Source: Candidatus Eiseniibacteriota bacterium
GTDB taxonomy: Bacteria > Eisenbacteria > RBG-16-71-46 > CAZAMP01
Length of the DNA: 64,000 nt
Assembly: GCA_965224245.1 (NCBI GenBank)
Contig: OZ245046.1
Span: 1,760,001-1,824,000, forward strand
Reading direction: 5' to 3'
The translations under genes were made by a program, and so were the position numbers. The notes under the pieces are model-generated. The model was not told the DNA's origin. It did no database searches and worked only from the letters and a program-made list of their open reading frames with translations. Numbering within the stretch: the first letter of the stretch is position 1; every line of letters begins with the position of its first letter. Of the stretch, positions 22,837 through 51,768 are shown piece after piece.

Positions 22837-22968
22837 CAGCCCTACGTCGAGTCGTCGATCTCCGCTTCGGGGCGAGTGGTGCCCCTCACCGGTGGTCCGG
22901 CCGGTCGTGAACCGCTACATTCCCGCTGTCCCGGATGCCGTGCCTGTCCCCGGGGAAGGACGTCCCAC

Positions 22969-30900: not shown

Positions 30901-31627
30901 CGGTGAAGAGCGTCTTCTCGGTCAGCTGCTGGTTCGTCGCCTTGGCGATGCCGAAGTCGATCACCTTCGGCACCGGCGTCCCGTCGTGGAGGGTCACCAT
31001 CACGTTGGACGGCTTGATGTCCCGGTGGATGATCCCCTTCTGGTGCGCGTGCTGGACCGCGCTGCACACCGACTGGAACAGCTCGAGACGCTCGCGCGTG
31101 GTCAGGTGGTTCTGGTCGCAGTACTCGGTGATGGGGATTCCGCGGACGAGCTCCATGACGAAGTACGGGCGCCCGGTCTCGGTGGCGCCGGCGTCGAGCA
31201 CGCGGGCGATGTTCGGGTGATCCATCAGCGCGAGCGCCTGGCGCTCGGCCTCGAAGCGCGCGATGACCTGGCGGGTGTCCATGCCGAGCTTGATGATCTT
31301 CAGCGCGACCTTGCGCCGGACCGGCTTCTCTTGCTCGGCCATGTAGACCGATCCGAAGCCCCCCTCGCCGATCTGCTGCAGGAGCTTGTAGCGTCCGATG
31401 GTGATTCCCGGTCCCTCGGCGGGGGCCCCGCCGGGGAGCAGCGGCTCGGTGGGGGCCGCCAGGACGTCGCCGCCGGCGTCGCCGGCGGCCAGCAACGTCT
31501 CGACCTCGGCGCGAAGCTCCGCGTCTCCCTCGCAGGCCCGGTCGAGGAACGCCTCTCTCTCCGAGGCGGGGAGCTCGAACGCGTCCTGGAAGACTCGCTT
31601 GACCCGGCTCCAGTTCTCGGTGCTCAT
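27941..31627 (-). CDS. Ser/Thr kinase with TM helix and extended TPR region (ECF-coupled)
   Basis: ATGA overlap with the upstream [58 protein letters not shown]. Confidence 0.95.
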
Positions 31628-32205
31628 CGTCCCTCCGCGTCGTCCGGCGCCAGCTCGCGCAGCAGCCACGCTCTGGCGAGCGCCCAGTCCCGGCGCACGG
31701 TCCGGCTCGTGACTCCCAGGGCCGCCGCCGCCTCGGCCTCGGAGAGTCCGACGTAGAATCGGAGCCGGACCACGTCCGCCGCTCGTCGGTCTCGCTCCTC
31801 AAGGCGCCGGACCGCGTCGTCGAGGGACACGATTTCTTCGACGTCTGCCCGCTCGGCCAGATCGACCACGTCGAGCGGGACCCGTTTCCGGTCTCCGCCG
31901 CGCTTGATCCGCCCCCGCTTGCGCGCGTGCTCGATGAGAATCCGGCGCATGGCCTCGGCGGCGGCCACGTAGAAGTGCGCCCGGCTCTGCCAGCTCAGCT
32001 CCTGGTTACCGACGAGCCGCAGGTAGGCCTCGTGGACGAGCGCGGTCGGCTGGAGGGTGTGATCGGGTCGCTCGGCCGCCATCTCCTTCTGCGCCCGGGC
32101 CCTCAGCTGGTCGTAGACGAGGGGCAGGAGCTCCTCGACGGCCGCGCCGTCTCCTCGGCTCGCCCGGCCGAGCAGGTGCGTGACCTGGCTGGCGGAATCC
32201 GTCAT
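31624..32205 (-). CDS. ECF sigma-70 factor, ECF43/TIGR02999 type
   Basis: [60 protein letters not shown]. Confidence 0.93.
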
Positions 32206-32313
32206 CTTGCCCCTCGGGAGTGGACCCGACGCTCGAACGACATTTGAGAGATGAGGGGTAATCTACCATCGGTCAAGGGTTTCCACCACCGGTCTCCGCT
32301 CCGGGTCGGGCGA

Positions 32314-32739
32314 CTACTCGGCGGGAGCGTCGTCCGAGACCCTCTCCTGCCGTCCCGGGTGCGCGTAGAGCAGCGCACGGACGATGTCGCGGTGCGCCAC
32401 GATTCCGACGATCTTCTCGCCGTCGAAGATCGGCAGGCGTCGCACGCGGGTGCGCTCCATGAGCTGCGCGCAGTGCTCGACCCGGAAGTCGGGACCGGCG
32501 AGCACGAGCGGCTTCGTGGTGATCTCGGCCACGCGGACCTTCCGGGGATCGCGGCCGGTCTCCACCACCTTGTTCACGATGTCGCTGAGGGTCACGATGC
32601 CCCACGTGTCGCTCGCGTCCCGCCGCTCCACCAGCACGCTCGACATCTCGTGCGTCCGCATGAGCTCGGTCGCCTCGAGCACCGTGAGATCGCCCCGCAC
32701 CCACACGAGCTCGCGGGTCATGATGTCCTGCGCCGTCAT
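32314..32739 (-). CDS. Stand-alone CBS-pair protein
   Basis: MTAQDIMTR..WGIVTLSDIVNKV..VRRLPIFDGEKIVGIV; ATGA overlap with the upstream gene. Confidence 0.9.
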   Translation of the reverse strand: MTAQDIMTRELVWVRGDLTVLEATELMRTHEMSSVLVERRDASDTWGIVTLSDIVNKVVETGRDPRKVRVAEITTKPLVLAGPDFRVEHCAQLMERTRVRRLPIFDGEKIVGIVAHRDIVRALLYAHPGRQERVSDDAPAE

Positions 32740-34850
32740 CGCACGTCTCGCTTTCTCGCCTCGAGGATCTCGAGAGCACGTCTCGAGCTCTCCTCCGCGG
32801 CGCGCAAGAGATCCTGGGCGTATCGGAAGTTGTGAATGGCCGCGGACGCGTCCGCGGTCACGAACGAGTAGTTCGACAGGGCCTCCTCGTACAGTCGCTC
32901 GGCCGTGGTGTCGGCGGCGGCGCCCCCGCTCCGGAGACGCGCCTCGACGCGATCGATCTGAGTCCGGACGCGGCGGTCGAGCTCCTCGATCGCCGACACG
33001 AAGGCGCGCGTCTCCTCGTCCATGTCGGTCTCGTGGCACCTGATGCACGAGCGCTCGGCGGACGGCCCGGGGGTCGGGGGTGCGTCGTCGGGCTTCCGGC
33101 CGGCGACGTCGACCCCGTGACACGCCGTGCACTTCACCTGGAAGTACTGCATGAGCGCCGGGCGTCCCCGCACACCCGCACCGGCCTCGCCTGCATAGAG
33201 CCGCTTCTGCGGCTCGTGACTGTCCACGTGGCACGCCTCGCAGTCCGTGACCGGATCCTCCTCGCGGGAGCCCGGATGCTCGATCTCGGAGTGACAGTCG
33301 AAGCAGTCGACGAGCTCCTCCCGGACGTGCACGTGATGCATCTCGGGCGTCGCGAGCCACTCGACGTCGAGGTGGCACGCGTTGCAGCGCGACGGCTCGA
33401 CCTCGATGCGTCCCCGCGAGGCGTCGCCGTGGCACGAGTGGCACTCCGCGTCCGTGCGATACGGCGTGTGATCCAGGCGAACCACGGCCGCGCCGGCTCG
33501 TGCGTCGAAGTCGTGGCATCCGCGGCACGGCGTCACCCGCTCGCTCACCGACGCGAAGTGGCAGAGGTTGCACGTGGCGGCCTCGACGGAGAAGTGGACC
33601 TTCTGGCCCCGGTGATTGTGACAGCTCGTGCACGTGGGCATGCCGATCGGCGCGAGCTCGGCGAGATGCGCCGCGTGCGAGAACGCCACGTCCGGGGCCC
33701 CGTCGACCTCGAAGCGCGGCGCGCGCGCCTGGGAGGTGTGACATCCCGATCGGAGGCACGAGGAATCGGGCACCTTGGCCACCGGCTTCGGATCGTAGGT
33801 CTTCGTGGCGTACCGGACGACCATCGCGACGCCCGTGATCTTTCCCCTCACCGCCCCCCGCAGCCCGTAGCTCCAGTGACAGGTCGTACACCGGATTTCC
33901 CGGTGCGCCGAGGTCGTCCAGGTGGCGTGATAGGGCTGCATGTTGTGGCACGACGGGCAGAGGGACGGCGTCTCGGACACCGTGGCGGTGCCCAGCACGA
34001 GCGCCACGAAGACCCCCGCGGACACGAGCGCGGCGCGCAGCACGTACGCGCGGTGAGACCAGATGCCGCGCAGAAAGAGCGATCGATTCGCCCGGCGCAG
34101 GCGCCGGCTGAGGAGTCGGGACATGCTCTCGAACACGACCGCTCCCAGGTGCTCGCGCCGGAGGGCCAGCTGGGTGAAGCGCTCACCGTCGATGACGATC
34201 ACCGTCGACGGCCGCGCGGTGCGGACGGTCGCCGAGCGCGTTCCCCCGAAGAGCTCGACCTCACCGACGATCTCACCCTCGCGGATGCGCGCGATCCGGC
34301 CGGCGCGCTTGGTGGAGACGACGAGCTCACCGGATTCGAGGAGGAACAGGCTGCGGTCCTCCTCGCCTTCCCGGATCAAAACCGTGTCCTTCGGGCAGCG
34401 CCGGAGTGACGCCAGGTTCAGGAGCGCGGCGAGGTCGTCGGCGGCGAGCCGGGAGAAGAACGGCACCCGCCTGAGAAGCGTGAAGAGCGAGAGAACGTCG
34501 TGGTAGCTGAGGATGCCCGCGGGGCGGGAGCCTTCCAGAACGAGGAGATGACGGACCCCGAAGCGCCGCATCAGCCGGCTGGCGTGACCGACGTTCAGCG
34601 AGGGGTCCACGAGGAGAAAGGCGGGTCGCATGACCGAGTCGATGCGAACCTCCGACGGGTCCAGCCCGCGCGCGGCCACCTTGGACACGATGTCGCGGTG
34701 GGTGACGATGCCCCAGGGCACGTCCTCGCGGGACGGTCGGACGATGACGCTCGAGATCCTCCGCTCGGCGAGGAGCCGGACCGCCTCGAAGAGACGCGCG
34801 TCGCCCGGCAGCACCGCCACGTCCCGGGTCATGAGGTCCAGGACCCTCAT
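32736..34850 (-). CDS. Fusion protein: CBS pair + cyclic-nucleotide-binding domain + TM + multiheme cytochrome c (11 CxxCH + 1 CX4CH)
   Basis: CBS (WGIVTHRDIV, VRHLLV); cNMP (REGE..LFLLESG..GEIVGEVELFGGTRSATV); TM AALVSAGVFVALVLG; NapC/NirT-like CPSCH..WTTSAH..CTTCH; C-terminal helical ADAS..IHNFRYA. Confidence 0.9.
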   Translation of the reverse strand: MRVLDLMTRDVAVLPGDARLFEAVRLLAERRISSVIVRPSREDVPWGIVTHRDIVSKVAARGLDPSEVRIDSVMRPAFLLVDPSLNVGHASRLMRRFGVRHLLVLEGSRPAGILSYHDVLSLFTLLRRVPFFSRLAADDLAALLNLASLRRCPKDTVLIREGEEDRSLFLLESGELVVSTKRAGRIARIREGEIVGEVELFGGTRSATVRTARPSTVIVIDGERFTQLALRREHLGAVVFESMSRLLSRRLRRANRSLFLRGIWSHRAYVLRAALVSAGVFVALVLGTATVSETPSLCPSCHNMQPYHATWTTSAHREIRCTTCHWSYGLRGAVRGKITGVAMVVRYATKTYDPKPVAKVPDSSCLRSGCHTSQARAPRFEVDGAPDVAFSHAAHLAELAPIGMPTCTSCHNHRGQKVHFSVEAATCNLCHFASVSERVTPCRGCHDFDARAGAAVVRLDHTPYRTDAECHSCHGDASRGRIEVEPSRCNACHLDVEWLATPEMHHVHVREELVDCFDCHSEIEHPGSREEDPVTDCEACHVDSHEPQKRLYAGEAGAGVRGRPALMQYFQVKCTACHGVDVAGRKPDDAPPTPGPSAERSCIRCHETDMDEETRAFVSAIEELDRRVRTQIDRVEARLRSGGAAADTTAERLYEEALSNYSFVTADASAAIHNFRYAQDLLRAAEESSRRALEILEARKRDVR

Positions 34851-34869
34851 GACGTCGTGCCGGAGGACC

Positions 34870-36117
34870 TCATGGCGACTCGCCCGGATGCTGGAGGTGC
34901 GCGAGGAGGTCCCGCAGATCGTCGCCCGTCAGCTCCGGCCAGGGATGGCCCTCGCTGAGGACGGCCTCCTTCATCACCGGCGCGTGGTTCCACATGGCCG
35001 AGACGAGGGCCGCCGGCGAGCCGATCACCTCGGCGGCGGTCAGCTCCGGTCCGGGATGCGGAACCTCTCCACCGCCGGAGTGACACTCCGCGCACGAGCG
35101 CTCGGAGAACGTCTCCGCGCCTCGACCGGCGTTTCCGGGGGCGTCGGTGAAGGGGCCGAAGTAGAGGTACGAGATGAGATCGGCCAGCTCCTGGGTCGTG
35201 AAGTGCGGCCAGGGGATGTTGCGCTCCGCGAACGCATCACGCATGACCTCGGCATGGTTCCACATCGTCCCGGCGATCGCCTCCGCCGAGCGGGGCAGCT
35301 CCCGGTCCAGGAGGTCCGGACCGAGCCCCGCATCGCCGGAGTCGGTGCGATGGCAGGTCGCGCATCCCTTCTCCTCGAACCGCCGGCGGCCGAGCTCCGG
35401 GTTTCCGGGGGCCAGGAGCGGGGTCCCGCCCGGGACCGCGGTGCCGATTCCCCGGATGTAGGCGCTGAGGTTCGCGAGGTCACCCGGCTCGAACGTGGGC
35501 GGGCGAACGCCGTGCTCGCGCATGGACTCGAACATCGCGGGGCCGTGGTTCCAGATCGCACGTGCGACGTGGAGGGGCGAGGCGAATCCGGTCAGCGCGC
35601 CGAGATCGGGTCCGATCGCGTCCCCTCGGTCCCCCACGCGGTGGCAACTCACGCATCCCCGCGCGCGAAAGACCTCACGACCGGCGTCCGTGGTGCCCGG
35701 GTCTCCGAGGTAGTCGATGTAGAAGAGAAACGCGACGAGGCGCAGCGTCTCGTCGGGAGTCAGCGTGGGCCACGCGAGCTCCATCTCCTCGAACGCGACG
35801 CTCATGCCGGGAACGTGGTTCCAGAGCGCGGCGCCGAGGTCCAGGAAGCTCCCGGAGAAGTGACCCCCGCCCAGCGCGGGCCCGATGTCGGGACCGCTTC
35901 CCGCGATCCCGTGACACCGGTTGCACCCCTTCTCCTCGAAGAGGAATCGCCCATCGATGGGGTTCTCGGGAAGGGACATCGTGTCGCTCGCGATCGCCGG
36001 GGTCACGAGGACGAGCGCGAGGACCGGGACGAGCAGCGTGCGCGCCTTCGGGAGGATCGCGCCGGCTGCTCCCGGCGTCGGGCGCCCCGTGTCGGGCGCG
36101 TTCCACGCGATGCTCAC
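34870..36117 (-). CDS. Periplasmic cytochrome c with four repeated monoheme domains
   Basis: Signal peptide; CNRCH, CVSCH, CATCH and CAECH, each followed by GP.L and WNH...M. Confidence 0.9.
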   Translation of the reverse strand: MSIAWNAPDTGRPTPGAAGAILPKARTLLVPVLALVLVTPAIASDTMSLPENPIDGRFLFEEKGCNRCHGIAGSGPDIGPALGGGHFSGSFLDLGAALWNHVPGMSVAFEEMELAWPTLTPDETLRLVAFLFYIDYLGDPGTTDAGREVFRARGCVSCHRVGDRGDAIGPDLGALTGFASPLHVARAIWNHGPAMFESMREHGVRPPTFEPGDLANLSAYIRGIGTAVPGGTPLLAPGNPELGRRRFEEKGCATCHRTDSGDAGLGPDLLDRELPRSAEAIAGTMWNHAEVMRDAFAERNIPWPHFTTQELADLISYLYFGPFTDAPGNAGRGAETFSERSCAECHSGGGEVPHPGPELTAAEVIGSPAALVSAMWNHAPVMKEAVLSEGHPWPELTGDDLRDLLAHLQHPGESP

Positions 36118-36386
36118 CGCTCCTCCTCCCGGCCGTCCTCCTCGGGCGGCCGGCGTCCCCGGCGCAGCCCCACGAACACGTACGTCAGGACGCTCGCGCC
36201 GGTCAGGTACACGGGAATCGCCACGATCGAGATGCCGATCGATGCGGACGGAACGTCGTGGAGCTGGCGCGAGAGGCGGATGAGGTGAAGGATCCAGGCG
36301 CTGATTCCGAGCACGAAGACCCAGATCATGGCCATGGAGATCACCTGCAGGACGAAGAGCGTACGCTCTTGCTTCGTGCCGCGCAT
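36114..36386 (-). CDS. Small 2-TM membrane protein of the respiratory operon
   Basis: GGAGG ribosome-binding site, two hydrophobic helices, tightly coupled to both neighbours. Confidence 0.8.
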   Translation of the reverse strand: MRGTKQERTLFVLQVISMAMIWVFVLGISAWILHLIRLSRQLHDVPSASIGISIVAIPVYLTGASVLTYVFVGLRRGRRPPEEDGREEER

Positions 36387-36388
36387 CG

Positions 36389-37780
36389 TCACCTCCCCCC
36401 CGTCGCCGGCTCGCGTCGGCCCGTGGCATCGGCCGTCAGCTCCGGCAGGTAGCTGCGCACGCGCGCGGTCGTCTCGGCGACCGACTTCTCCCGGCCCTCC
36501 CGGCTCTCCCAGATGGAGATCAGGGGAAAGAACCGGCCGAAGACGACGAACCCGATGGCCAGCGACGCCAGCCCTCCGACGAACATCCCCCACTCGACGA
36601 GGCTGGGGACGTAGAACCCGCTGGGATACGGAAGCCTCGGGTTGGCCAGGGACGGCACCACGATGTTGAGCCGCTCGAGCCACATCCCGATCATCACCGC
36701 GATCGAGGCCACGAAGATCCCCGGGATGCGACGCGTTCGACGAAAGCTCAGGATGAGAACGGGGATGACGAAGTTGCACGCCACCATCCCCCAGAAGAAC
36801 GGCGCGTAGGTGCCCTCGAACTTGTAGAGGAAGACGCGCATCTCCGTCGGCTCGTGGCCGAAGAAGGCCGTGAGGTACTCCGAGAACGTGAAGTAGAACC
36901 AGAGCAGCGACATGATCAGCAGCAGCTTCGAGAGATGGCTGAAGTGAATGGTCTTGAGGTAGCGCTCGAGATGGAAGATGCGTCGGAGCACGATCATCAT
37001 CACCAGGAGCGCCGCGATGCCGGAGAAGATGGCCCCCACGACGAAGTACGGGCCGAAGATCGTGGAGTGCCAGCCCGGCTGCAGCGTCATCGCGAAGATG
37101 TACGAGATGACGGTGTGGACCGAGACGGCGATCGGGATCACGAGCACCATGAGGATGCTCATCGCGCGCTCCAGGACCGCTTCCTGACGCGCGGTACCCT
37201 GCCAGCCCCAGGACAGAAACGCGTAGAGCCAGCGCGGGCTGACGTTACGATCCCGGAGCAGCGCGATGTCCGGAATCATCGGGATGTACAGATACACGGT
37301 CGAGGCCATGAAGTACGCGGAGATCGAGGACACGTCCCAGAGAAGGGGTGATTGAAGCCTTCCCGCGCTGAAGATGTTGAGCATGCGATCGGGTCGGCCC
37401 AGGTCGAGCACCGGGTGGACGGCGCCGATCGCCAGCACGACGACCGTGATGACCTCCGCCATCCGCGTGATGGGCCGTCGCCACTCCGCCTGCGAGAGCC
37501 GCAGGACGGCCGAGATCAGCGTCCCGGCGTGACTGATGCCGATGAAGAACACGAAGTTGACGATGTAGAAGCCCCACCCTACCGGCTGGTTCAGCCCGGT
37601 GACCCCGAGCCCTCGGAGAATCTGCCGGCTGAACAGAACCCAGCAGCCGAGGATGAGCAGCGCGAGCAGCGTGAACGTCACGCGGAAGCGCGCGCCCGCG
37701 TGCTCGACCGAGCGCAGGAGATCCACGTCCTCGCACGCGCCCGGCTCGTCGTCCCGTCTGTCCGCGACCGCGTCCGTCAT
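36389..37780 (-). CDS. NrfD/PsrC-family membrane quinol-interacting subunit (QrcD/ActC-like)
   Basis: WGFYIVNFVFFIGISHAGTLISA, RPITRMAE, DLGRPDR, SPLLWD, SVHTVIS, PGWHSTIFGPYFVVGAIFSG. Confidence 0.93.
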   Translation of the reverse strand: MTDAVADRRDDEPGACEDVDLLRSVEHAGARFRVTFTLLALLILGCWVLFSRQILRGLGVTGLNQPVGWGFYIVNFVFFIGISHAGTLISAVLRLSQAEWRRPITRMAEVITVVVLAIGAVHPVLDLGRPDRMLNIFSAGRLQSPLLWDVSSISAYFMASTVYLYIPMIPDIALLRDRNVSPRWLYAFLSWGWQGTARQEAVLERAMSILMVLVIPIAVSVHTVISYIFAMTLQPGWHSTIFGPYFVVGAIFSGIAALLVMMIVLRRIFHLERYLKTIHFSHLSKLLLIMSLLWFYFTFSEYLTAFFGHEPTEMRVFLYKFEGTYAPFFWGMVACNFVIPVLILSFRRTRRIPGIFVASIAVMIGMWLERLNIVVPSLANPRLPYPSGFYVPSLVEWGMFVGGLASLAIGFVVFGRFFPLISIWESREGREKSVAETTARVRSYLPELTADATGRREPATGGR

Positions 37781-37808
37781 CGTTCGCCTCTCTCCCTCGT
37801 TCACGCCG

Positions 37809-38495
37809 TCACTCGGTCTCCGAGAGATAGATCACCTTGGGCCGGGTTCCGAGGTCCGCGTGCAGGCGGAACGCCCGGGAGCTCCGGGCCAGGTCGCTCA
37901 CCCGGCTGGCCGGATCGTCGAGGTCCCCGAACTCGATCGCCCGGGCCGGGCAGCTCTCCGCACAGGCGGGGACCACGTCGCCGTCCCGTAGCTCGCGCTC
38001 CTCGACACGCGCCTGCTCCTTCGCCTGGTTGATCCGGTGGTGACAGAACGTGCACTTCTCCACGACGCCCTTGTAGCGACGCGACACGTCGGGGTTCGCC
38101 TTCCGAGCGAGATCACCGGGCCACTCGGGCTCGTACCAGTTGAAGACCTTGGCGTTGTACGGACACGCGGCCATGCAGTACCGGCAGCCGATGCACCGGG
38201 CGTAGATCTGCCCGACGATCCCCTCGTCACCGAGATACGTCGCGTGCACCGGACACACCCGCACACAGGGCGGGTCGTCGCACTGGAAGCACGGCTGCGG
38301 CATGTACGTGACCTTGGTCTCCGCATGGCTTTCCGAGACCTCGCTGATGACCCGCATCCAGTGGAAAGCACGGCTCCTCTCCACCGCCTCCTCCTTTCCG
38401 GAAGCGGCCAGGTTGTTCTCTTGATGGCAGGCGGCCATGCAGGCCCCGCATCCCGTGCAGCGGTCGAGATCGATGACCATGCCCCATCGTGCCAT
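37809..38495 (-). CDS. 4Fe-4S dicluster electron-transfer subunit (NrfC/QrcC-like)
   Basis: CTGCGACMAAC, CFQCDDPPCVRVCP, CIGCRYCMAACP, KCTFC..CAESCP. Confidence 0.95.
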   Translation of the reverse strand: MARWGMVIDLDRCTGCGACMAACHQENNLAASGKEEAVERSRAFHWMRVISEVSESHAETKVTYMPQPCFQCDDPPCVRVCPVHATYLGDEGIVGQIYARCIGCRYCMAACPYNAKVFNWYEPEWPGDLARKANPDVSRRYKGVVEKCTFCHHRINQAKEQARVEERELRDGDVVPACAESCPARAIEFGDLDDPASRVSDLARSSRAFRLHADLGTRPKVIYLSETE

Positions 38496-40948
38496 CAGGT
38501 GTGCCCTCCCTCGTGCGGAGGCGGCCCGCCATGCCGGCGGCGCCGCGTCACGTGAAGCGTCACCGGGGTGGGGCCGGCCGCGAGCGTGCCGTCCAGCGCG
38601 TCGGGGGCCGTGGAGACGATCTCCAGCGGGTTGCTCCCCGCACCGCCCACGCGTTCGTTCAGCGTGTCATGACCCAGCCCGATCGGAACGTGGGCGACCC
38701 CGGGCATCCCACCCCGCTGCACGCGCACCTCCGCCTCGATCGTGCCCCGATCGGAGCGAATGGCCACGCGGTCGCCGTGCTCGACGCCCAGCTCGTGCGC
38801 CGTGGACGGCGCGAGCTCGACCCAGGTGGTCCAGCCCGAGAAGACGGTGTGCCCGAACATCTCGAGCAGCATCGGCGAGACGACCCCCAGATCTCCTCGC
38901 GACGTGATCGGTCGGAAGCAGACCATCGTCAGCTCCGCCGCCTCGTCCGGCTCCGTGGGCTCGTGATGGGGCAGGCAGCTCTCGTCGCTCCCGGTCTCGA
39001 CGCCGCTCGCGCGCTCGTGCTCGAGCAGACGCTGGGAGAAGAACTCGAAGCGACCGGATGCGGTGGCGAACACCCGGCTCCAGTCCGCCTCGGCCCGCAC
39101 CGGCGACCACCAGCCCGCATCGCGCACCATGTCCTCCCAGAGCTCGTCGACGCTCGTGTGGGTCATGAATCGCCACCCGCGCTCCTCCAGGAAGTGGACC
39201 CACGACTCCTCGAACGATCCGCGCGCGATCGCCCCCTGCCCCGACGTCACGAGCCCGGAGAGCCGGTGCTCCAGGTAGGTGTCGTATCGCTCCCAGGGGA
39301 GATGCGAGGCGACCGGCTCACCCAGGCGGGCCGCCAGGCTCAGCAACGTGTCGCCCGCGGTCCGGGTGTCGAACAGCGGCTCCACCACGGGATGACCGAG
39401 ACCGACGCTGTTGAACCCCACCGTCGGAGGCGTGGTGCTCTCGCGCCACGACTCCAGGAACATGGGTGTGGGCAGGATCAGCTGGGCGAGCGAGGAGGTC
39501 TCGTCCAGCACGGAGGTCATCGCGACCACCAGAGGAATCCGGCTCAGTGCCTCGCGCAGCCGATCCCCGGCCGGGCTCGAATGCACCGGGTTGGCGCCGA
39601 CGATGAGCAGAACGTCCAGCGGATGCGAGCCCGAGAGCACGCCGTCGGCCAGCGCCTCCACGGGGTCCGCTCCGAACCGGTGCGACCCGGGGCGCGGCGC
39701 GAAGAGCGACGAGGAGCGATCCAGCGATGGATCCGCGACGGGATCCAGCGGAAGGAACGGGACCCGTGCCGGCAACAGCACCCCCCCCGGTCGCTGAAAG
39801 GCCCCCATGAGCGCGTTGAGAGCGTGTACGCAGACCGCGGTCGCGGTCGCGTTGGAGCCCGCGAGCGCCTCGCCGCCGCTCAGCGCGAGCGGCGCCGATC
39901 CGCGCGCGAAGCGACGCGCGAGATGGATGATGGCGGCCGCCTCGCAGCCGCAAATCGCGGCCACGCGATCGGGGTAGTAGCGCTCCAGGAGGAGGCGACG
40001 AAACCCCATGTGGGGGCGACCCTGATCGTCCGTCCAGTCCTCGAATCCGAAGGTGTGCTCGGCGACGAAGCGGCGATCGTGCCGGCCCTCGCGGACGATC
40101 ACGTGGGCGATGCCCAGGGCCAGGGCGCCGTGCGTGCCGGGTCGGACCGGGAGGTACTGCCTCGCCTTCGCCGCCGAGGGGGAGAGTCGCGTGCCCACGT
40201 GAAGCAGCGTGCAGCGCTCTCCGGATGCCCGCGAGCCCACCAGCGCCGAGATCGCGTGCACCGGTGCCGGACCGTCCTCGTACAGGTCGAGCCCGAACGA
40301 GAGCACGACGTCCGCACGTGCCAGGTCGAAGGCCGGAATCTCGTCCAGGCCCTGCGTGAGCCGGAAGGGCAGCGCGCGATCGACCGAGGGGCGCGAGACG
40401 TTCGGCGACCCGATCGACTCGCCGAAGCGAACGGCCAGCTCGTGGAAGAGCGATCCCGTCTCGCCCGAGAGGATGGCCATGCGTGATCCGTCTCCCGCGG
40501 TCCTGAGCGCGTCCAGGCGCGAGGCGATCCGGTCCAGCGCCTCTTCCCACGTCGTGGGCCGCCGCTCGCCGCTCGCCTCGAGGACGAGCGGTCCCCGGAT
40601 GCGCTCGGGCGCGTAGAGAAGCTCCAGCGCGGAGCACCCGACCGGACACAGCCCGCCCCGGTTCAGGGGATGATCCGGACTGCCCTTGACCCCCACCGGC
40701 AGTCCGTCCACCAGACGCACTCGCAGCCCGCAGCCGCTCTCGCAGAGGCCGCAGATCGTGCTGGCGCCGCTCTCGATGCCGGGTCCGCGGAGGGCGAGCT
40801 CGACGAGATGCTCCGGCACCGACCACTCCCGATCGCAGCCGAGCAGCGTGGCGCCACTCGAGACGCCCAGGAGGCGGAGGAAGTCGCGCCGCGGCAAGCG
40901 CCTCACGTCGTTCCCCTCGATCGCGGTCCACGCTCTCTCCGTCGTCAC
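38495..40948 (-). CDS. Molybdopterin-oxidoreductase-family large subunit, QrcB-like (Tat lipoprotein)
   Basis: RRDFLRLLG Tat motif plus LLGC lipobox; CGLCESGC..LC Fe-S motif; PVRPGTHGALALG; C-terminal molydop-binding-like domain. Confidence 0.9.
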   Translation of the reverse strand: MTTERAWTAIEGNDVRRLPRRDFLRLLGVSSGATLLGCDREWSVPEHLVELALRGPGIESGASTICGLCESGCGLRVRLVDGLPVGVKGSPDHPLNRGGLCPVGCSALELLYAPERIRGPLVLEASGERRPTTWEEALDRIASRLDALRTAGDGSRMAILSGETGSLFHELAVRFGESIGSPNVSRPSVDRALPFRLTQGLDEIPAFDLARADVVLSFGLDLYEDGPAPVHAISALVGSRASGERCTLLHVGTRLSPSAAKARQYLPVRPGTHGALALGIAHVIVREGRHDRRFVAEHTFGFEDWTDDQGRPHMGFRRLLLERYYPDRVAAICGCEAAAIIHLARRFARGSAPLALSGGEALAGSNATATAVCVHALNALMGAFQRPGGVLLPARVPFLPLDPVADPSLDRSSSLFAPRPGSHRFGADPVEALADGVLSGSHPLDVLLIVGANPVHSSPAGDRLREALSRIPLVVAMTSVLDETSSLAQLILPTPMFLESWRESTTPPTVGFNSVGLGHPVVEPLFDTRTAGDTLLSLAARLGEPVASHLPWERYDTYLEHRLSGLVTSGQGAIARGSFEESWVHFLEERGWRFMTHTSVDELWEDMVRDAGWWSPVRAEADWSRVFATASGRFEFFSQRLLEHERASGVETGSDESCLPHHEPTEPDEAAELTMVCFRPITSRGDLGVVSPMLLEMFGHTVFSGWTTWVELAPSTAHELGVEHGDRVAIRSDRGTIEAEVRVQRGGMPGVAHVPIGLGHDTLNERVGGAGSNPLEIVSTAPDALDGTLAAGPTPVTLHVTRRRRHGGPPPHEGGHT

Positions 40949-40972
40949 CTGCCTACCTCCCGTTCGCGACGC

Positions 40973-41509
40973 TCACCGGTGACAGGACACACAGTCGTTC
41001 GAGGCGGCTCGTTCCTGGTGGCACTGCATGCAGTCGTCCATGCGCATGCGCACGAGGGGTCGCGTGAGCGGCACCTCGCGCTCCTCGATCGGTCCGTGAC
41101 AGCGCCCGCACTCGATCCCGCCCACCGCCGTGTGCCGGCGATGCGAGAAGTACACGTGCTCGGGCACGACGTTGACCTTTCTCCACGGGATCGGGACCCC
41201 GTCGCGTATGTACTCCACGGTGCGCGCCTCCTCGGCCGACTCCGTCATCGCCTCCTCGTGGCAGTCGACGCAGACCTCGATGTTGGGGATCGTCGCGCGT
41301 ACGCCCTTCCGCGCGTACACGTGACAGTCCGTGCACTCCAGGCCCGCGTCCTCGACGTGGAGGTGATGGTTGAACGCGATCGGCTGGGTGATCGCCGCAC
41401 CGAGCGCGGCCGGTGCCGCCAGCAGGAGGACGATCCAGCGAGCGTTCCGCAGCCGGTCGCCTCCTCGCCGGCCGCGGCGCCGGCGGCCGTCGGTGGCTGT
41501 GCGCGTCAT
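40973..41509 (-). CDS. Pentaheme cytochrome c (QrcA/ActA-like)
   Basis: QPIAFNHHLH, CTDCH, CVDCH, VYFSHRRH, CGRCH, CMQCH, CVSCH. Confidence 0.92.
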   Translation of the reverse strand: MTRTATDGRRRRGRRGGDRLRNARWIVLLLAAPAALGAAITQPIAFNHHLHVEDAGLECTDCHVYARKGVRATIPNIEVCVDCHEEAMTESAEEARTVEYIRDGVPIPWRKVNVVPEHVYFSHRRHTAVGGIECGRCHGPIEEREVPLTRPLVRMRMDDCMQCHQERAASNDCVSCHR

Positions 41510-42729
41510 CGCACCGTCTCCGTGGCCCGTGACAGCTCGATGTCCAGGTGCTGCGTCTCCATGATGACCGGCCGGTAGCGATACGAGAGCTCGGCGCTGA
41601 TGTTCACGGGGCGCCGCTGTCGGACGTAGAACCGGAAGCGCTCGACTTGCTCCCCTCTCGGCGCGACCCGGTTGTCGCTCACCACCTTCGCGCCGTAGAG
41701 GATGGCCTCCCAGTCGGTGTCGATGATGTTGCCGTCCGCGTCGGCGATCACCTTCCGGTAGCGCCGCTCCTGCTCGGTGGTCAGGCCGTCGACCTCCGCG
41801 GTGACGGTGAGCACGACCTCCCGGCTCGGCATTCCGGTCGGCACCTTGTGTCCGGAGCCAACGTTGGCGACTCGCACCCGGACGTCGACGTCGTCTCCGG
41901 TCCGCGTCGCGCCGATGATCTCCACCGACATGGCGTCGCGGAGCTGGTTGCTGTCGTGGATCAGGTCGTGAAGGTGCATGTCCGCCTGCGAGGCCTTGAC
42001 CTCCTCGCTCACCACCCGTCCCTCGCCCAGGACCATGTGACAGGTCTGACAGGGCTTGCCCTCCTCGGCGTAGGGTCCTTCCCGCCACTCGTCGTAGGTG
42101 CTCATGATCGCGGCCCCACCGGGCGCCACGTAGTTGTGGCAGCCGGCACAGAACTCGGCGGTGCCGTGGAGCTCGGAGAACGCCACGTCGTGCGCCGGCG
42201 ATGCCGCCTTCCTCAGGATGCTCCGCTTGATGGGGCCCACGTCGAAGAGATAGGGCACGTCGGCTCCGGCGGGAGCGAGCCCGGACACGGTGTGGCAGAA
42301 GTCACAGCTCACGCCCTCGCGCGTCACGCCCTGCACCAGCTCGTAGTCTCGGTTCGTCATCGTCATCGGCGCGTGGCAGCGGAGACACAGGCTCTTTGCG
42401 TCGTCGCCCGCCTCCTTCAGCGCCATCATGTACGCCGCGTCGAAGATGGGATCGGTCAGCGAGAACGCGTGGAGGCTTCTCTTCCACGATTCGTAGATGT
42501 CGGTGTGGCAGCGACCGCAGACCTGCGCGCTCGTGTAGCCATCCTCGTTGATGGAAACCGACCCGGCGTGTGGCTCGCTCCCGGTCGATGCCGCACGGCC
42601 GACGGCTGCCGGCCCGGCCATCGTCGCCGCGACGGCGAGCGCCGCCGCCAGGATCGGGATCGGTCTCGCGTATCGCCGGGTGCCCACCCGGGCGGTCGTG
42701 GGGAAGCGGGATGGCGCGGCGACGTGCAT
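41506..42729 (-). CDS. Exported pentaheme cytochrome c (c554/c552-like) with C-terminal beta domain
   Basis: Signal peptide; CGRCH, CLRCH, CDFCH, CAGCH, CQTCH; GHKVPTG. Confidence 0.9.
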   Translation of the reverse strand: MHVAAPSRFPTTARVGTRRYARPIPILAAALAVAATMAGPAAVGRAASTGSEPHAGSVSINEDGYTSAQVCGRCHTDIYESWKRSLHAFSLTDPIFDAAYMMALKEAGDDAKSLCLRCHAPMTMTNRDYELVQGVTREGVSCDFCHTVSGLAPAGADVPYLFDVGPIKRSILRKAASPAHDVAFSELHGTAEFCAGCHNYVAPGGAAIMSTYDEWREGPYAEEGKPCQTCHMVLGEGRVVSEEVKASQADMHLHDLIHDSNQLRDAMSVEIIGATRTGDDVDVRVRVANVGSGHKVPTGMPSREVVLTVTAEVDGLTTEQERRYRKVIADADGNIIDTDWEAILYGAKVVSDNRVAPRGEQVERFRFYVRQRRPVNISAELSYRYRPVIMETQHLDIELSRATETVR

Positions 42730-42783
42730 CGGGGACCCCCCGTCGAAAGAGCCGAGCGACTCCGGACTTCACGACATGAGCCG

Positions 42784-42799
42784 AGCAAGGAGCGTACCG
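42784..42799 (-). promoter_or_regulatory. Sigma-54 (-24/-12) promoter of the respiratory operon
   Basis: Minus strand CGGTACGCTCCTTGCT (GG-N10-GC), ~55 nt upstream of the first gene and just downstream of an NtrC-type activator gene. Confidence 0.75.
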
Positions 42800-42872
42800 C
42801 TGGCGCGATCACGCTAACTGGCTGCGGGAGAAGTCTTTCCAGACGAAGGTGAATCAGTGCGAATCGGCACGA

Positions 42873-42887
42873 CTGACAGATTGTCAG
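42873..42887. promoter_or_regulatory. Palindromic upstream activator site candidate
   Basis: CTGACA-gat-TGTCAG, ~75-90 bp upstream of the -24 box. Confidence 0.6.
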
Positions 42888-42951
42888 GCCGGAGCGTGCG
42901 ACCCGGTCTGGCGCAGGGACTTGGCGCGTGCCACGCCGCGCGGAGCGGGTG

Positions 42952-44316
42952 TCAGTTCTGGCGCGAGTCCTCGACGTCACCCGATCGGAGCTTGCGATAG
43001 AGCGTCCGCTCGCTGATGCCGAGCGCCGCCGCCGCGCGGGCGCGGTTCCCATCGAAGCGCTGGAGCAGGTCGTGGATGTACCGTCGCTCGACCTCCTGCA
43101 GCGACAGCGGCGGCTCGTCGGCGTCGCCTGCCCGGTCCTCCGAGGTTGCCGCGAGGTTCGTCGGCAGGTGGCGCCGGCTGATCGCTCCCCCCTCCGAGAG
43201 GATCAGCGCACGCTCGATCACGTTCCGGAGCTCGCGCGCGTTCCCCGGCCACGCGTATGCGCGCAGCATCTCCATCGCGCCGTCGTCCATGGGGGGCGGG
43301 TCGGACGGGCGAAGACGCGAGAGAAAGTGGAGGGCCAGCGGGCCGATGTCCTCGACGCGCTCCCGGAGGGGGGGCACGTCGATGCGAAAGACGTTCAGCC
43401 GGTAGTAGAGATCCTCGCGGAAGGTCCCCTCGCGAACGAGCGCCTCCAGGTCGCGATGCGTGGCGGCGAGCACGCGCACATCCACCCGGATCGACTCCTC
43501 ACCCCCGAGCCGCCGGAACGCGCCCGTCTCCAGCACGCGGAGAAGGCGGGTCTGGAGCGACATCGTCGCGTCCCCGATCTCGTCGATGAGGATGGTCCCC
43601 GAGTCGGCCAGCTCGAAGAGCCCGTGCTTGCGCGCGCTGGCGCCCGTGTAGGCGCCCCGCTCGTGCCCGAACAGCTCCGAGAGCGCGAGGTTCTCCTCGG
43701 TGGAGCCGCAGTCGAGCACCACGAGCGGCCGCTCGCGTCGGGGTCCCTGGCGATGGATGACGCGGGAGACGACCTCCTTGCCCGTGCCGCTCTCGCCGCG
43801 GATGAGCACGGTCGAGCTCGTGGGCGCGACCTTCTCGATCAGCGCCTTCAGGCGCCGCACGGAGTCCGAGCGGCCGATCAGCTCGGGGCTCTCGGAGCGG
43901 CGGTGGAGCGAGTGGCGAAGCGCCGCGTTCTCCGAGCGCATGGCGCGCTTCTCCGCCGCGCGCCGGATGGTCGACTCCAGATGATCCAGATCACACGGCT
44001 TGGTGAGAAAGTCGTACGCGCCCAGCTTGAGGGCCTGGACCGCCGACTCCACCGACCCGTGGCCCGTGAGGATGATGACCTCGGTGAGCTCCCGGACCTT
44101 CTTGATTCGCTCCAGCGTGTCGATCCCGTTCATGTGCGCCATCCGCAGGTCCAGCACGACGACGTCGTAGGGGGTGTGAAGAAGGGCCTCCTCGACGTCC
44201 TCGCCGCGGCTCCTCGTCTCCACCTGGATGTTCGCCGCGTTCAGCTCCCGCGCCAGGACGGTTCGAAACGTATCGTCGTCGTCCACGATCAGCACCGAGG
44301 GATTCAGCGCGCTCAC
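42952..44316 (-). CDS. Sigma-54-dependent response regulator (NtrC/AtoC family)
   Basis: REC domain (IVDDD, LDLRM), GESGTGKE, ELFGHERGAYTGA, DEIG, FREDLYYRLNV, Fis HTH LGISERTLYRKL. Confidence 0.97.
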   Translation of the reverse strand: MSALNPSVLIVDDDDTFRTVLARELNAANIQVETRSRGEDVEEALLHTPYDVVVLDLRMAHMNGIDTLERIKKVRELTEVIILTGHGSVESAVQALKLGAYDFLTKPCDLDHLESTIRRAAEKRAMRSENAALRHSLHRRSESPELIGRSDSVRRLKALIEKVAPTSSTVLIRGESGTGKEVVSRVIHRQGPRRERPLVVLDCGSTEENLALSELFGHERGAYTGASARKHGLFELADSGTILIDEIGDATMSLQTRLLRVLETGAFRRLGGEESIRVDVRVLAATHRDLEALVREGTFREDLYYRLNVFRIDVPPLRERVEDIGPLALHFLSRLRPSDPPPMDDGAMEMLRAYAWPGNARELRNVIERALILSEGGAISRRHLPTNLAATSEDRAGDADEPPLSLQEVERRYIHDLLQRFDGNRARAAAALGISERTLYRKLRSGDVEDSRQN

Positions 44317-51704: not shown

Positions 51705-51768
51705 CCCGGTCCCCCCGCTTCGGGAACGTACTCTGCGTGAGCCGGCGCCCGTCCTCCCGCGACCGCTC

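Follow-up and report, generated by a model that had tools for sequence, protein, structure and literature searches.

Does one gene in the 64-kb stretch of DNA analysed here (the window) really join cytoplasmic nucleotide-binding domains to a periplasmic multiheme cytochrome and, if so, what might its product do?

An uninterrupted fusion gene with relatives

The reading frame in question is set out with its parts and neighbours in Table 1. Pfam and hydropathy agree with the domain order given by the first-pass annotation, namely a CBS pair, a cNMP-binding domain, a TM helix and a 12-heme cytochrome c, followed by a helical tail. The annotation had also remarked on the absence of a cytoplasmic output domain, and this holds: the CBS pair, the cNMP domain and a single linker helix together account for all of residues 1-267 (Pfam and AF2 model), and a Pfam scan of the protein found an enzymatic output domain on neither side of the membrane.

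Such a layout could be an artefact, in which a misassembly or frameshift has fused a cytoplasmic regulator gene with a cytochrome gene; a stop or misassembly at the junction had been named at first pass as something that might undo the reading. We give this explanation practically no weight. Checked in the sequence, the frame is continuous, and frame-specific GC3 is even, at 0.85-0.97 along the whole frame including the junction at codons 241-301. The same architecture is found in eight further proteins, drawn from ENA, NCBI and JGI sources: seven full-length relatives at 52-56% identity and one (P0028) at 40%. Moreover, the helix at the junction is the best-conserved part of the fusion. The joining of a regulator gene to a cytochrome gene by misassembly or frameshift is ruled out as far as sequence can tell.

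The window's protein and its eight relatives make up the fused set (n = 9); the close set (n = 8) excludes P0028. It had further been conceded that relatives might always encode the parts as separate proteins. This is not so, as all nine fusions form one clade (support 100) in a FastTree tree built from the heme core only, and a search for a close stand-alone CBS-cNMP protein found none. The CBS-cNMP-cytochrome design is rare yet conserved, and on this comparative evidence the fusion is real and under selection. A published description of the architecture was not found in the literature.

Table 1. Features of the fusion gene and its surroundings; positions are those of the window.
Feature	Position	Strand	Residues or size	Basis
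Whole fusion ORF, stop included	32736..34850	(-)	704 aa	ATG start, uninterrupted
CBS pair (Bateman module)	34476..34850	(-)	1-125	Pfam CBS
Cyclic-nucleotide-binding domain	34155..34475	(-)	126-232	Pfam cNMP_binding
Phosphate-binding cassette GEVELFGGTRSAT	34227..34265	(-)	196-208	Alignment with PKA-R, PKG cassettes
Juxtamembrane linker helix (LRRANR..FLRGIW.HR)	34050..34154	(-)	233-267	AF2, conservation
Single TM helix, predicted N-in	33975..34049	(-)	268-292	Hydropathy, flanking charge
NrfH-like start, hemes 1-3, K337	33735..33974	(-)	293-372	NrfH 2j7a_C match
Middle c7/c3-type heme region, hemes 4-7	33393..33734	(-)	373-486	Pfam Cytochrome_C7, CIII
OcwA/NrfA-like heme region, hemes 8-12	33021..33392	(-)	487-610	OcwA profile match
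Three-helix C-terminal tail, family-wide H673-N674 (..IHNFRYA..)	32739..33020	(-)	611-704	AF2, OcwA alignment
Stand-alone CBS-pair protein	32314..32739	(-)	141 aa	Pfam CBS 4.9e-24
c-type cytochrome, several class-I domains	34870..36429	(-)		Pfam Cytochrom_C 1.3e-25, 3 stretches
Qrc-like four-gene module	36389..42088	(-)		Pfam, NCBIfam
QrcA-like multiheme	40973-42088	(-)		NCBIfam QrcA 115.5 bits, below curated cutoff
QrcB-like molybdopterin-type	38495-40948	(-)		NCBIfam QrcB 296.8 bits, below curated cutoff
QrcC-like 4Fe-4S	37809-38495	(-)		NCBIfam QrcC 299.9 bits, below curated cutoff
NrfD/DsrP/QrcD-like membrane subunit	36389-37804	(-)		NCBIfam DsrP 112.5 bits, below curated cutoff
Multiheme cytochrome (c554-like, ExtKL-like), first gene of putative operon	41506..42729	(-)	407 aa	Pfam, NCBIfam
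Sigma-54-dependent response regulator, 5′ of putative operon	42952-44316	(-)		NCBIfam AtoC/NtrC-type
Sensor histidine kinase, 5′ of putative operon	44313-46190	(-)		NCBIfam AtoS-type
ECF sigma factor, 3′ of CBS paralogue	31624-32205	(-)		Pfam
Ser/Thr kinase, after ECF sigma factor	27941-31669	(-)		Pfam

The cytoplasmic CBS pair and cNMP-binding domain

Pfam CBS matches the fusion protein in two stretches (E = 1.2e-19, 70.8 bits against a cutoff of 24), and the CBS pair and cytoplasmic part are modelled by AF2 with a pLDDT of ~95. Both repeats carry G-h-h-[ST]-x-x-D, which we take to be the CBS ribose motif, as GIVTHRD at residues 47-53 and GILSYHD at 112-118; in the close-relative alignment it is present in 7/7 of the sequences covering each repeat. 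The closest solved relative of the pair by sequence profile is CBS-CP12 of Microcystis aeruginosa (5nmu/5npl, 5.7e-30), which by fold shows 37% identity and an rmsd of 1.6-1.7 Å over 120 columns. In excerpts of PMC6142219, the CBS-CP12 pair is AMP-specific (binding AMP, not ADP, ATP or cAMP) and signals to a fused partner domain. There, however, the partner is CP12 and its target the soluble phosphoribulokinase, whereas the pair in the fusion protein is joined to a cNMP domain and a membrane cytochrome.

The match to Pfam cNMP_binding covers residues 150-229 (E = 1.3e-16, 60.7 bits against a cutoff of 27.5). This domain resembles PKA-R, PKG and MloK1 in sequence and CRP-type folds in the fold search. 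Its phosphate-binding cassette, GEVELFGGTRSAT, had been described as intact and does align with the cassettes of PKA-R and PKG, matching them position for position minus one residue, with GE at 196-197 and RS at 205-206 lining up. G196, E197, E199, L200, F201, G202, G203, R205, S206, A207 and T208 are invariant in 8/8 close fused proteins. The GE and RS residues are kept in 8/9 of the whole fused set, P0028 having Asn in place of the cassette Arg.

Among the solved structures in the fold search, CNNM/CorC (6mn6, 6n7e) is the sole group that combines the order CBS pair then cNMP-like domain with a membrane part. However, these domains come after a DUF21 membrane domain in CNNM/CorC, which has no hemes. 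The order in the fusion protein is reversed, Pfam finds no DUF21 match in it, and the domain orientation differs (rmsd 20-21 Å over ~300 columns). The CNBH domain of CNNM/CorC is not known to bind cyclic nucleotides.

A conserved linker modelled as continuous with the membrane helix

One hydrophobic segment, at about residues 268-292, was found in the fusion protein, in line with the single TM helix proposed at first pass. Lys and Arg number seven in the 20 residues before it and zero in the 20 after, which indicates that the N-terminus is inside. In the AF2 model, the cNMP C-helix and the TM helix form one unbroken helix (233-292). The linker within it is the most conserved segment, with 79% mean pairwise identity and 20/35 columns invariant (57%); elsewhere, pairwise identity is 54% in the TM helix and 60-65% in the CBS and cNMP domains.

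In the MloK1, HCN and CNG channels, too, a helix connects a membrane-embedded machine to a cytoplasmic cNMP domain whose cassette is of the PKA type, and this offers an analogy for gating by ligand. The channels, however, place the cNMP domain after the last TM helix, where it gates an ion pore in a tetramer, whereas in the fusion protein it stands before the only TM helix, and what it would gate is an electron path on the far side of the membrane.

The periplasmic heme module

A motif script counted 11 CxxCH (residues 298, 321, 407, 427, 442, 470, 489, 516, 537, 574 and 602), one CLRSGCH (CX4CH, residue 365, coordinates 33738-33758) and zero CxxCK in the fusion protein, the 11 plus one being just the tally of the first-pass annotation. 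Composition alone predicts 0.04 CxxCH and the maximum in 20000 shuffles was two; 24/25 Cys lie inside heme motifs. By motif and predicted topology, the periplasmic side thus carries twelve c-type heme-binding motifs. CLRSGCH stands opposite a CxxCH of GSU1996, and does not vary in two sets of 58 and 72 family members. No solved structure spans the whole heme module.

The module begins with CPSCHNM at heme 1 (CxxCHxM, 298-304), CTTCH at heme 2 and CLRSGCH at heme 3. The best PDB sequence match of this start is NrfH of Desulfovibrio vulgaris (2j7a_C; 6.2e-5 from the sequence alone, 2.2e-14 from the family profile), and by fold the TM-score on the target is 0.51, with an rmsd of 3.3-3.4 Å over 104 (2j7a_C) or 105 (2vr0_F) columns. 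The Met of CxxCHxM ligates the quinol-site heme in NrfH, according to excerpts of PMC3279761. Its counterpart M304 is invariant in the close fused proteins (alignment A1) and conserved at ≥90% in the family alignments A2 and A3, and CxxCHxM is almost universal across the heme family. In the profile alignment, which covers hemes 1-2 of the fusion protein only, K337 lies opposite the conserved Lys K82 of NrfH; the alignment ends at NrfH residue 83, short of D89, the Asp that binds quinol, and an equivalent of Asp89 was not found in it. Cytochrom_NNT (PF03264, NapC/NirT) scores 22.6 bits over 272-353, below its cutoff of 24.1, and the NCBIfam NrfH model TIGR03153 scores 37.7 bits against a cutoff of 134.2. 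PF03264 is carried by 5/7 close relatives in the precomputed Pfam list and reaches 29.4 bits in P0028 in our own scan. The NrfH/NapC/CymA tetraheme quinol dehydrogenases (NrfH 2j7a/2vr0) likewise have a single N-in, N-terminal TM anchor. NrfH and the fusion protein share a leading CxxCHxM, a second CxxCH at equal spacing and the fold of the first ~105 residues; however, there are 12 hemes here and four in NrfH, and NrfH has few cytoplasmic residues in place of 267.

Pfam Cytochrome_C7, CIII and c3_2 match residues 421-541, and the motifs of hemes 4-7 are invariant or almost so family-wide. The last five motifs and the tail match the profile of OcwA, the nonaheme surface cytochrome of Thermincola potens (6i5b; 2.2e-19 and 1.5e-30). 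The tail helices of the AF2 model (610-640, 648-665 and 675-703) align with the three C-terminal helices of OcwA, which bears out the c552-type helical tail suggested at first pass, and Pfam Cytochrom_C552 reaches 24.5 bits in P0028 against a cutoff of 24.1. In the fold search of this region, OcwA and NrfA are the top partial matches (E = 4.8e-3 and weaker, 156-174 columns). Judged from the profiles, hemes 8-12 and the three-helix tail, with its ..HN..Y.. motif, are homologous to the NrfA-like module of OcwA. OcwA itself is soluble or cell-surface and has neither a TM anchor nor an NrfH-like part.

The periplasmic part might then be an enzyme and not just a wire, in which an NrfH-like quinol dehydrogenase is fused to an NrfA/OcwA-like reductase whose penta-coordinate catalytic heme might act on nitrite, NO, hydroxylamine, sulfite or metals. 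In favour of this is the homology of its C-terminal module to OcwA, and a weaker one to NrfA, ONR and MccA. Heme 8 (C489) lies opposite the OcwA heme motif that opens the NrfA-like module of that protein, and OcwA retains penta-coordinate hemes in excerpts of PMC9250108. Moreover, non-motif His conserved family-wide number only 10 for 12 hemes, so at least two hemes would not be bis-His. However, the catalytic heme of NrfA is bound by CxxCK, which the fusion protein lacks, the fold search of the heme module gave no structure match at E≤1e-3, and H545 misses the non-bonding distal His of OcwA, falling next to it (a hand count on the profile alignment). We regard an enzyme as a minority possibility, rather unlikely on present evidence; it concerns the periplasmic half only and is compatible with any regulatory reading.

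The heme family and other N-terminal fusions

The heme module belongs to a large family, unnamed and uncharacterised, with 221 representatives at E≤1e-30, delimited here as inner-membrane cytochromes with 12 hemes, an NrfH-like head and an OcwA-like tail. Most members are unfused and have just a TM anchor with a short tail. Other fusions occur on the same core: P0068 has a canonical receiver (Pfam 4.4e-17, with the Asp/Thr/Lys set), P0167 a receiver-like form with a weak match and P0169 a cNMP domain alone. The CBS-cNMP, receiver and cNMP-only fusions occupy three separate positions in the tree and, going by that topology, their domains joined independently at the same heme-core position. All of the fused domains (CBS, cNMP, receiver) are signal-receiving and none is an output domain. 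At locus L001, an unfused homologue lies directly 3′ of a stand-alone receiver and histidine kinase. The N-terminus of the family has been used repeatedly for docking sensor or membrane domains.

The clades nearest to the CBS-cNMP fusions carry large multi-TM N-terminal domains, so the N-terminal position may be mainly a site for membrane partners. Membrane domains at this position in sister clades would suit a cytoplasmic part that has lost, or never possessed, a regulatory ligand and that helps an otherwise ordinary membrane-anchored multiheme cytochrome to dimerise, assemble or find its place. Dimers are known both for CBS pairs (CBSdel forms them in excerpts of PMC6142219) and for CRP-type cNMP domains, and the weak receiver-like match of P0167 points the same way. 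The cassette Arg is absent from P0169, whose first heme motif is degenerate, as it is from P0028, where Pfam detects a single CBS repeat and misses the first. Ligand binding is thus not common to all fusions, and the cytoplasmic domains may serve mainly as scaffolds. However, the cassette contact residues and both CBS ribose motifs are kept in the eight close members at 52-56% identity, which is the pattern expected from selection for binding, and we consider a role as scaffold only to be unlikely.

Gene neighbourhood

Ten genes run closely spaced in one direction, and the fusion gene is number nine. Before it lie the genes for two multiheme cytochromes, those for QrcB/C/D-like subunits and one for a class-I cytochrome c, which ends 19 nt 5′ of the fusion gene and probably starts later than listed; after it lies the CBS-pair paralogue. 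The ATG of this last gene overlaps the TGA of the fusion gene (ATGA), and its product is paralogous to the fused CBS pair (36% identity, 2e-22). Matches to the NCBIfam Qrc models are confined to the neighbouring genes, the fusion protein itself giving none.

The operons of the menaquinone reductase Qrc (QrcABCD, sulfate reducers) and of Cbc4 (CbcSTU, Geobacter) likewise combine a multiheme cytochrome with a 4Fe-4S and an NrfD-type subunit, and CbcS of Cbc4 is an NrfH-like anchored cytochrome, as is the fusion protein (excerpts of bioRxiv 10.1101/2025.04.14.648717). CbcS, however, has four bis-His hemes and no cytoplasmic domain.

Direction of signalling and a possible mechanism

At first pass it had been inferred that the cytoplasmic domains might gate or assemble a heme wire from inside the cell, or relay its redox state inward. 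The inside-to-outside direction is the one favoured by three results: other domains of input type, a receiver or a cNMP domain alone, have joined the heme core at the same position in independent fusions; the AF2 model runs the cNMP C-helix straight on into the TM helix; and no segment is more conserved than that linker.

In the opposite direction, the 12-heme domain would report the redox state of the periplasm or of the quinol pool, the CBS-cNMP part would change conformation and a protein-protein contact would follow. Candidate contacts are the co-translated CBS-pair protein or the downstream pair of ECF sigma factor and Ser/Thr kinase. The lack of an enzymatic output on either side is consistent with such a sensor, as are the translational coupling of the CBS paralogue and the presence of the sigma factor and kinase next on the same strand; a rigid helix with a conserved linker suits both directions. 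However, ECF sigma and kinase genes are frequent in the window, a second ECF sigma factor (4515-5144) and seven more Ser/Thr kinases lying elsewhere in it, so their adjacency is weak evidence. Moreover, three different signal-receiving modules (CBS, cNMP and receiver) share one position, and 12 hemes with an NrfH-type quinol-site signature exceed the needs of a sensor. A sensor working from outside to inside seems to us quite improbable.

The reading that we prefer, at slightly less than an even chance, is that the gene, in a Qrc-like operon, encodes a nucleotide-gated module carrying electrons from quinol to the periplasm. The fusion protein would be a multiheme cytochrome of NrfH type in the inner membrane, with small nucleotides in the cytoplasm controlling its electron flow. 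Heme 1, at the membrane surface, would be reduced by menaquinol directly or via the neighbouring NrfD-type subunit, and the 12-heme chain would hand electrons to periplasmic partners or, alternatively, a substrate would be reduced at the NrfA/OcwA-like heme. The CBS pair may sense adenylate status, with AMP as the lead ligand because it is the ligand of the closest solved relative, CBS-CP12, and the cNMP domain may take cAMP or cGMP. On ligand binding, the cNMP C-helix, which the model merges with the TM helix into one rigid helix, would move. If the protein is a dimer, its TM helices would then be displaced or turned, and this would alter either the quinol site at heme 1 or how the protein associates with the Qrc-like complex. 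The outcome would be a nucleotide-operated valve on a quinol-oxidising branch, and the design may let the energy or cAMP state of the cell switch a respiratory electron path. Against the gated module, the quinone site could sit in the neighbouring NrfD-like subunit instead, a signal could pass through a single TM helix only in an oligomer, and the scores of the NapC/NirT and NrfH models, as sequence matches, are below their cutoffs.

To our knowledge, the control of respiratory branches in bacteria has been described almost entirely at the level of transcription. It is possible, but on balance doubtful, that this is the first respiratory electron-transfer protein gated allosterically across the membrane by second messengers or energy charge, with cAMP/cGMP and AMP, bound in the cytoplasm, opening or closing a periplasmic 12-heme path of quinol oxidation via one continuous helix. 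If true, it would be a direct and fast link from nucleotide signals to electron flow out of the quinone pool, and a testable one, as the domains are separable. The receiver and cNMP-only fusions of sister lineages would then suggest a general, unrecognised post-translational control of multiheme cytochromes. If the gating is real, such modules could become ligand-switchable electron conduits. The stand-alone CBS paralogue, for its part, may form a hetero-oligomer with the fused CBS pair. Beyond what the first-pass annotation described, the locus also yielded the mostly unfused heme family, the NrfH-like N-terminal end of the module and the Qrc-like operon.

Architecture of the fusion protein

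The fusion protein (P0001) is encoded by 704 codons that stay open from the ATG on the minus strand, bearing out the first-pass annotation, which had described a single uninterrupted ORF. The CBS pair and the cNMP-binding domain it had named were both recovered by Pfam in the N-terminal part, with cytochrome matches further on (see table). A motif script likewise found the 11 CxxCH motifs and the one atypical CLRSGCH (residues 365-371) and detected no CxxCK in the whole ORF; 24 of the 25 cysteines lie within heme motifs. From composition, 0.04 CxxCH would be expected, and the maximum in 20000 shuffles was two. Hydropathy revealed a sole hydrophobic segment, as expected from the single transmembrane (TM) helix that had been claimed, flanked by seven Lys/Arg within 20 residues on its N-terminal side and by none within 20 on its C-terminal side. 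Heme attachment is an extracytoplasmic process and, together with this charge bias, argues for a cytoplasmic location of residues 1-267 and a periplasmic one of the heme part. The non-hydrophobic N-terminus argues against a signal peptide.

A misassembly or frameshift at the junction would provide a trivial explanation for the fusion. The G+C content of the window is 67-72%, and third-position GC of the fusion frame is 0.85-0.97 in every 60-codon window, remaining steady across the junction with no break in the reading frame. Given this uniformity, the existence of eight other fused proteins and the fact that the junction helix is the best-conserved segment, such an artefact is ruled out as vanishingly improbable.

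Features of the window and of the fusion protein. Residue numbers refer to the fusion protein; identity is the mean pairwise value in the eight close fused members.
Feature	Position	Strand	Remarks
Sensor kinase gene	44313-46190	as fusion gene	first in order
Sigma-54-dependent response regulator gene	42952-44316	as fusion gene	second; followed by a 222-bp gap
-24/-12 element CGGTACGCTCCTTGC	42785-42799	-	2 mismatches
Qrc-like set with extra multiheme cytochrome	36389-42729	-	the five genes that follow
407-aa multiheme cytochrome		as fusion gene	first after the gap
QrcA-like cytochrome		as fusion gene	next
QrcB-like molybdopterin-type protein		as fusion gene	next
QrcC-like 4Fe-4S protein		as fusion gene	next
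NrfD/DsrP/QrcD-like membrane subunit		as fusion gene	next
Cytochrome with several class-I domains	34870-36429	-	next; then fusion gene and CBS-pair gene
Fusion gene	32736..34850	-	704 aa
CBS-pair gene	32314-32739	-	141 aa
PF07638-type ECF sigma factors	4515-5144; 31624-32205
Large Ser/Thr kinases	8587-11409; 19999-25602; 27941-31669; 46272-54560; 58910-61870
LVIVD-repeat beta-propeller	11578-15060	+	1160 aa; FlgD-Ig-like end
B12-binding radical-SAM protein	15562-17796	-	744 aa
CBS, 2 repeats			Pfam E 1.2e-19; identity 60-64%
cNMP-binding domain	residues 150-229		Pfam E 1.3e-16; identity 65%
TM helix	residues ~268-292		identity 54%
NrfH-like head	residues 293-372		identity 69%
NapC/NirT match	residues 272-353		Pfam, 22.6 bits, narrowly below cutoff 24.1
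Class-III/c7-type cytochrome matches	residues 421-541		Pfam

Fused relatives

A word-indexed search over 5.8 billion clusters, with 8000 candidates scored, returned 27 proteins at E<=1e-3. CBS, cNMP and cytochrome Pfam domains occur together in 8/27, the query included. The seven fused relatives (P0002-P0008, 638-715 aa, from ENA, NCBI and JGI sources) share 52-56% identity across 90-100% of the query. Seven further matches (P0009-P0015, 29-36% identity) cover the heme part alone, and the other 12 align within the CBS or cNMP part alone, over just 11-27% of the query. An exhaustive search of representatives gave 16701 matches at E<=1e-3, 1264 at 1e-10 and 221 at 1e-30. Among the best 150, the only full-length matches are P0007 and P0028, a protein of 695 aa that is 40% identical and has cNMP, CBS and cytochrome domains. 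As to whether relatives encode the parts as separate proteins, a check raised by the first-pass annotation, eight relatives therefore carry the same fusion.

A stand-alone CBS-cNMP tandem was absent from the shorter proteins matching residues 1-262, where two matches at E<=1e-8 were each single-domain; proteins of similar length gave only weak single-domain matches beyond the seven fused relatives. From 76 pattern matches, a scan of contigs with the fused alignment yielded four loci, each distant and without the fusion; neither the window's own genome nor the close relatives turned up in that collection. No usable match came from the ESM Atlas, and none from a plasmid collection searched by tblastn.

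In the alignment of the eight close fused members, 12/12 heme motifs are invariant, as are most residues of the phosphate-binding cassette (G196-T208). The pattern G-h-h-[ST]-x-x-D is kept for both CBS repeats in 7/7 sequences covering each repeat; the first repeat is missing from P0008, and a gap of 23 residues interrupts the second in P0004.

The heme module

Most homologues of the heme core combine a short tail and a single TM helix with this same core of 11 CxxCH plus CX4CH; they end after the helical tail (~440-500 aa) or add hemes (up to 30 CxxCH). In alignments of 58 and 72 sequences, the twelve heme motifs, M304, K337, D362 and ten non-motif histidines (316, 392, 395, 419, 461, 505, 508, 525, 545 and 673) are invariant or >=90% conserved. 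Ten such histidines for twelve hemes imply that at least two of the hemes are not bis-His.

The best solved match to the TM helix and hemes 1-2 is NrfH (6.2e-5 for the single sequence, 2.2e-14 for the family profile). M304 lies two residues past the His of the first heme motif; the Met at this spacing in NrfH is described as ligating the high-spin heme beside the menaquinol pocket, and NrfH Asp89 as serving in quinol binding (PMC3279761). K337 aligns with NrfH K82 in the family-profile alignment. D362 was considered as the equivalent of Asp89 and dropped, since it lies at the wrong spacing from the aligned Lys and the profile alignment does not extend past NrfH residue 83. Further along, CLRSGCH aligns with one CxxCH of the dodecaheme GSU1996, and residues 487-693 match OcwA (2.2e-19 and 1.5e-30), reported as a cytochrome with nine hemes, whose C-terminal module is NrfA-like and which carries oligomerisation helices (PMC9250108). 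The c552-type helical tail had been correctly recognised, and the original description of the protein was right on every point.

An AlphaFold2 model of residues 260-704 (mean pLDDT 83.0, pTM 0.68) found no match in the PDB at E<=1e-3. Its best partial fold matches were OcwA, NrfA and the NrfH chain, the last with a TM-score on target of 0.51 and an rmsd of 3.3 A over 105 aligned columns; no solved structure spans the whole module. The module is thus a composite whose head is NrfH-like, its middle c7/c3-like and its end OcwA/NrfA-like. A possible enzymatic role of the periplasmic part is independent of how the protein is regulated. Its end resembles NrfA, membership of NrfA itself is ruled out by the lack of CxxCK, and we consider an enzymatic role rather unlikely.

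Other fusions on the heme core

Pfam was run on 26 of the best 150 representatives, namely those whose match starts beyond about residue 80 of the hit, plus P0028 and P0169. P0068 has a canonical receiver domain (Pfam E 4.4e-17), whose sequence shows the Asp/Thr/Lys set, and P0167 a receiver-like N-terminus with a weak VpsR match below cutoff (E 0.0096). P0169 has the cNMP domain alone, with a cassette lacking the Arg and a degenerate first heme motif. Twenty-two of the 26 proteins, including P0034, P0038, P0044, P0070, P0075 and P0087, have several predicted TM helices ahead of the heme core, with ~8-10 helices in ~320 residues in one group and ~25 helices in 870-950 residues in another. A rescan at E<=0.5 of six of these (P0034, P0044, P0128, P0038, P0112 and P0047) and P0167 gave no above-cutoff Pfam match outside the cytochrome part; the only sub-cutoff matches were VpsR in P0167 and DUF3290 in P0047 (E 0.24). 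These large multi-TM domains joined to a 12-heme cytochrome are themselves uncharacterised. In the other 124 of the best 150 that have a TM helix, the first heme motif falls within the first 88 residues, leaving no room for an N-terminal domain.

A FastTree tree was built from the heme core alone (159 rows; proteins with <9 CxxCH were left out, and P0029 and P0135 excluded for insufficient length). In it, the nine CBS-cNMP proteins fall into a single clade (support 100), nested in a group of 37 rows (support 98) together with every one of the tree's 21 multi-TM fusions and seven unfused proteins; the multi-TM fusions make up most of the sub-clade around the CBS-cNMP proteins. The two receiver fusions pair separately (support 95) in the other group, of 122 rows, and P0169 is placed elsewhere, beside an unfused protein (support 93). 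The tree shows cytoplasmic fusions at three separate places, which does not in itself prove three gains; it is a quick tree, its branches are long, and several of its joins were marked unsafe by the program. One of the seven unfused proteins, a 461-aa homologue in a Phycisphaerae MAG (locus L001, 8170-11353), is encoded immediately after genes for a stand-alone receiver and a histidine kinase, and upstream of a paired-CXXCH multiheme cytochrome.

The cytoplasmic part and its possible role

The full-length model has a mean pLDDT of 83.7, rising to ~95 over residues 1-250, and a whole-model fold search returned matches to cytoplasmic domains only. Closest to the fused CBS pair is CBS-CP12 (5.7e-30 by sequence; 37% identity, rmsd 1.6-1.7 A over 120 columns), which is reported to bind AMP, not ADP, ATP or cAMP, and to have a dimeric isolated CBS pair (PMC6142219). 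The cassette is one residue shorter than those of PKA-R and PKG and otherwise aligns with them, in agreement with the earlier view that it is intact; Ser206 occupies the position of a Thr in PKG. In the fold search, the cytosolic CBS and CNBH domains of CNNM2 and CNNM3 share the domain order but differ in arrangement (rmsd 20-21 A). A single unbroken helix spans residues 233-292 of the model, the cNMP C-helix running straight into the TM helix. Its linker portion (233-267) is the most conserved segment in the eight close members (79% mean pairwise identity, 20/35 columns invariant).

We tentatively propose, with slightly less than even confidence, that electrons enter through the fusion protein as a module of the NrfH type and pass onward along its long heme chain, and that nucleotides on the cytoplasmic side would set the activity or assembly of this module. 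This reading is favoured because the predicted ligand sites are kept in the close clade, a rigid, highly conserved helix connects sensor with membrane, and input-type domains recur at the same position. It is weakened by the loss of the cassette Arg in P0028 and P0169, and by an NrfH match that is partial and below curated cutoffs. The lost Arg also bears on a reading of the cytoplasmic domains as a scaffold only, which the ligand sites kept in the close clade lead us to think unlikely. The connecting helix could equally belong to an outside-in sensor; this we regard as less likely still, set against input-type domains that recur on the cytoplasmic side.

Among the papers listed by full-text literature searches, none joined a multiheme cytochrome to a CBS or cNMP domain. 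The known inner-membrane families given in a survey of multiheme cytochromes from Desulfuromonadia are ActA, CbcA, CbcL, CbcS, CbcX, CymA/NapC/NrfH and ImcH, and in a term search of its main text the words CBS, cyclic nucleotide, receiver and cytoplasmic were all absent (PMC11492766). The parts of the fusion protein are all of known kinds; the combination, and the mode of control it implies, are not.

Gene neighbourhood

All Qrc-like matches fall under the NCBIfam equivalog cutoffs, and the module is accordingly named Qrc-like, not Qrc. Its membrane subunit scores higher with DsrP (112.5 bits) than with QrcD (36.4 bits), and the module may be a previously undescribed one, related to Qrc or alternative complex III. 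The quinone site may instead lie in this NrfD-type neighbour, which counts against nucleotide control of the fusion protein as an electron entry module.

The class-I cytochrome gene ends 19 nt ahead of the fusion-gene ATG. As listed, the ORF shares 41 nt with the end of the NrfD-like gene, and its opening ~130 residues, rich in Arg, Pro and Gly, contain no domain. Translation probably starts further on, close to the hydrophobic sequence LLVPVLALVLVTPAIA, which precedes the Pfam class-I cytochrome c matches and the c-type heme motifs. On the other side, the ATG of the CBS-pair gene overlaps the fusion-gene TGA (ATGA). Its product is a paralogue of the fused CBS pair (36% identity, 2e-22) and may be a hetero-oligomer partner of the fusion protein. 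No cyclase was found among the 27 window ORFs scanned against Pfam.

The sigma-54-like element is suitably placed, within the gap after the response regulator gene, 56-70 nt ahead of where the first cytochrome gene begins. Window-wide, the sigma-54 consensus has 20 matches against 37 expected by chance, and is thus not enriched. No sigma-70 promoter-like site and a single, intragenic terminator-like site were found in 31500-43200, and neither tRNA genes nor Rfam families were found. An ECF sigma factor and a Ser/Thr kinase lie 108 bp beyond the CBS-pair gene, and such pairs are common in the window. The 64 kb are rich in kinases, with eight large Ser/Thr kinases carrying TPR or PD40 repeats, an unusual density. 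The beta-propeller and radical-SAM proteins are unrelated to the fusion.
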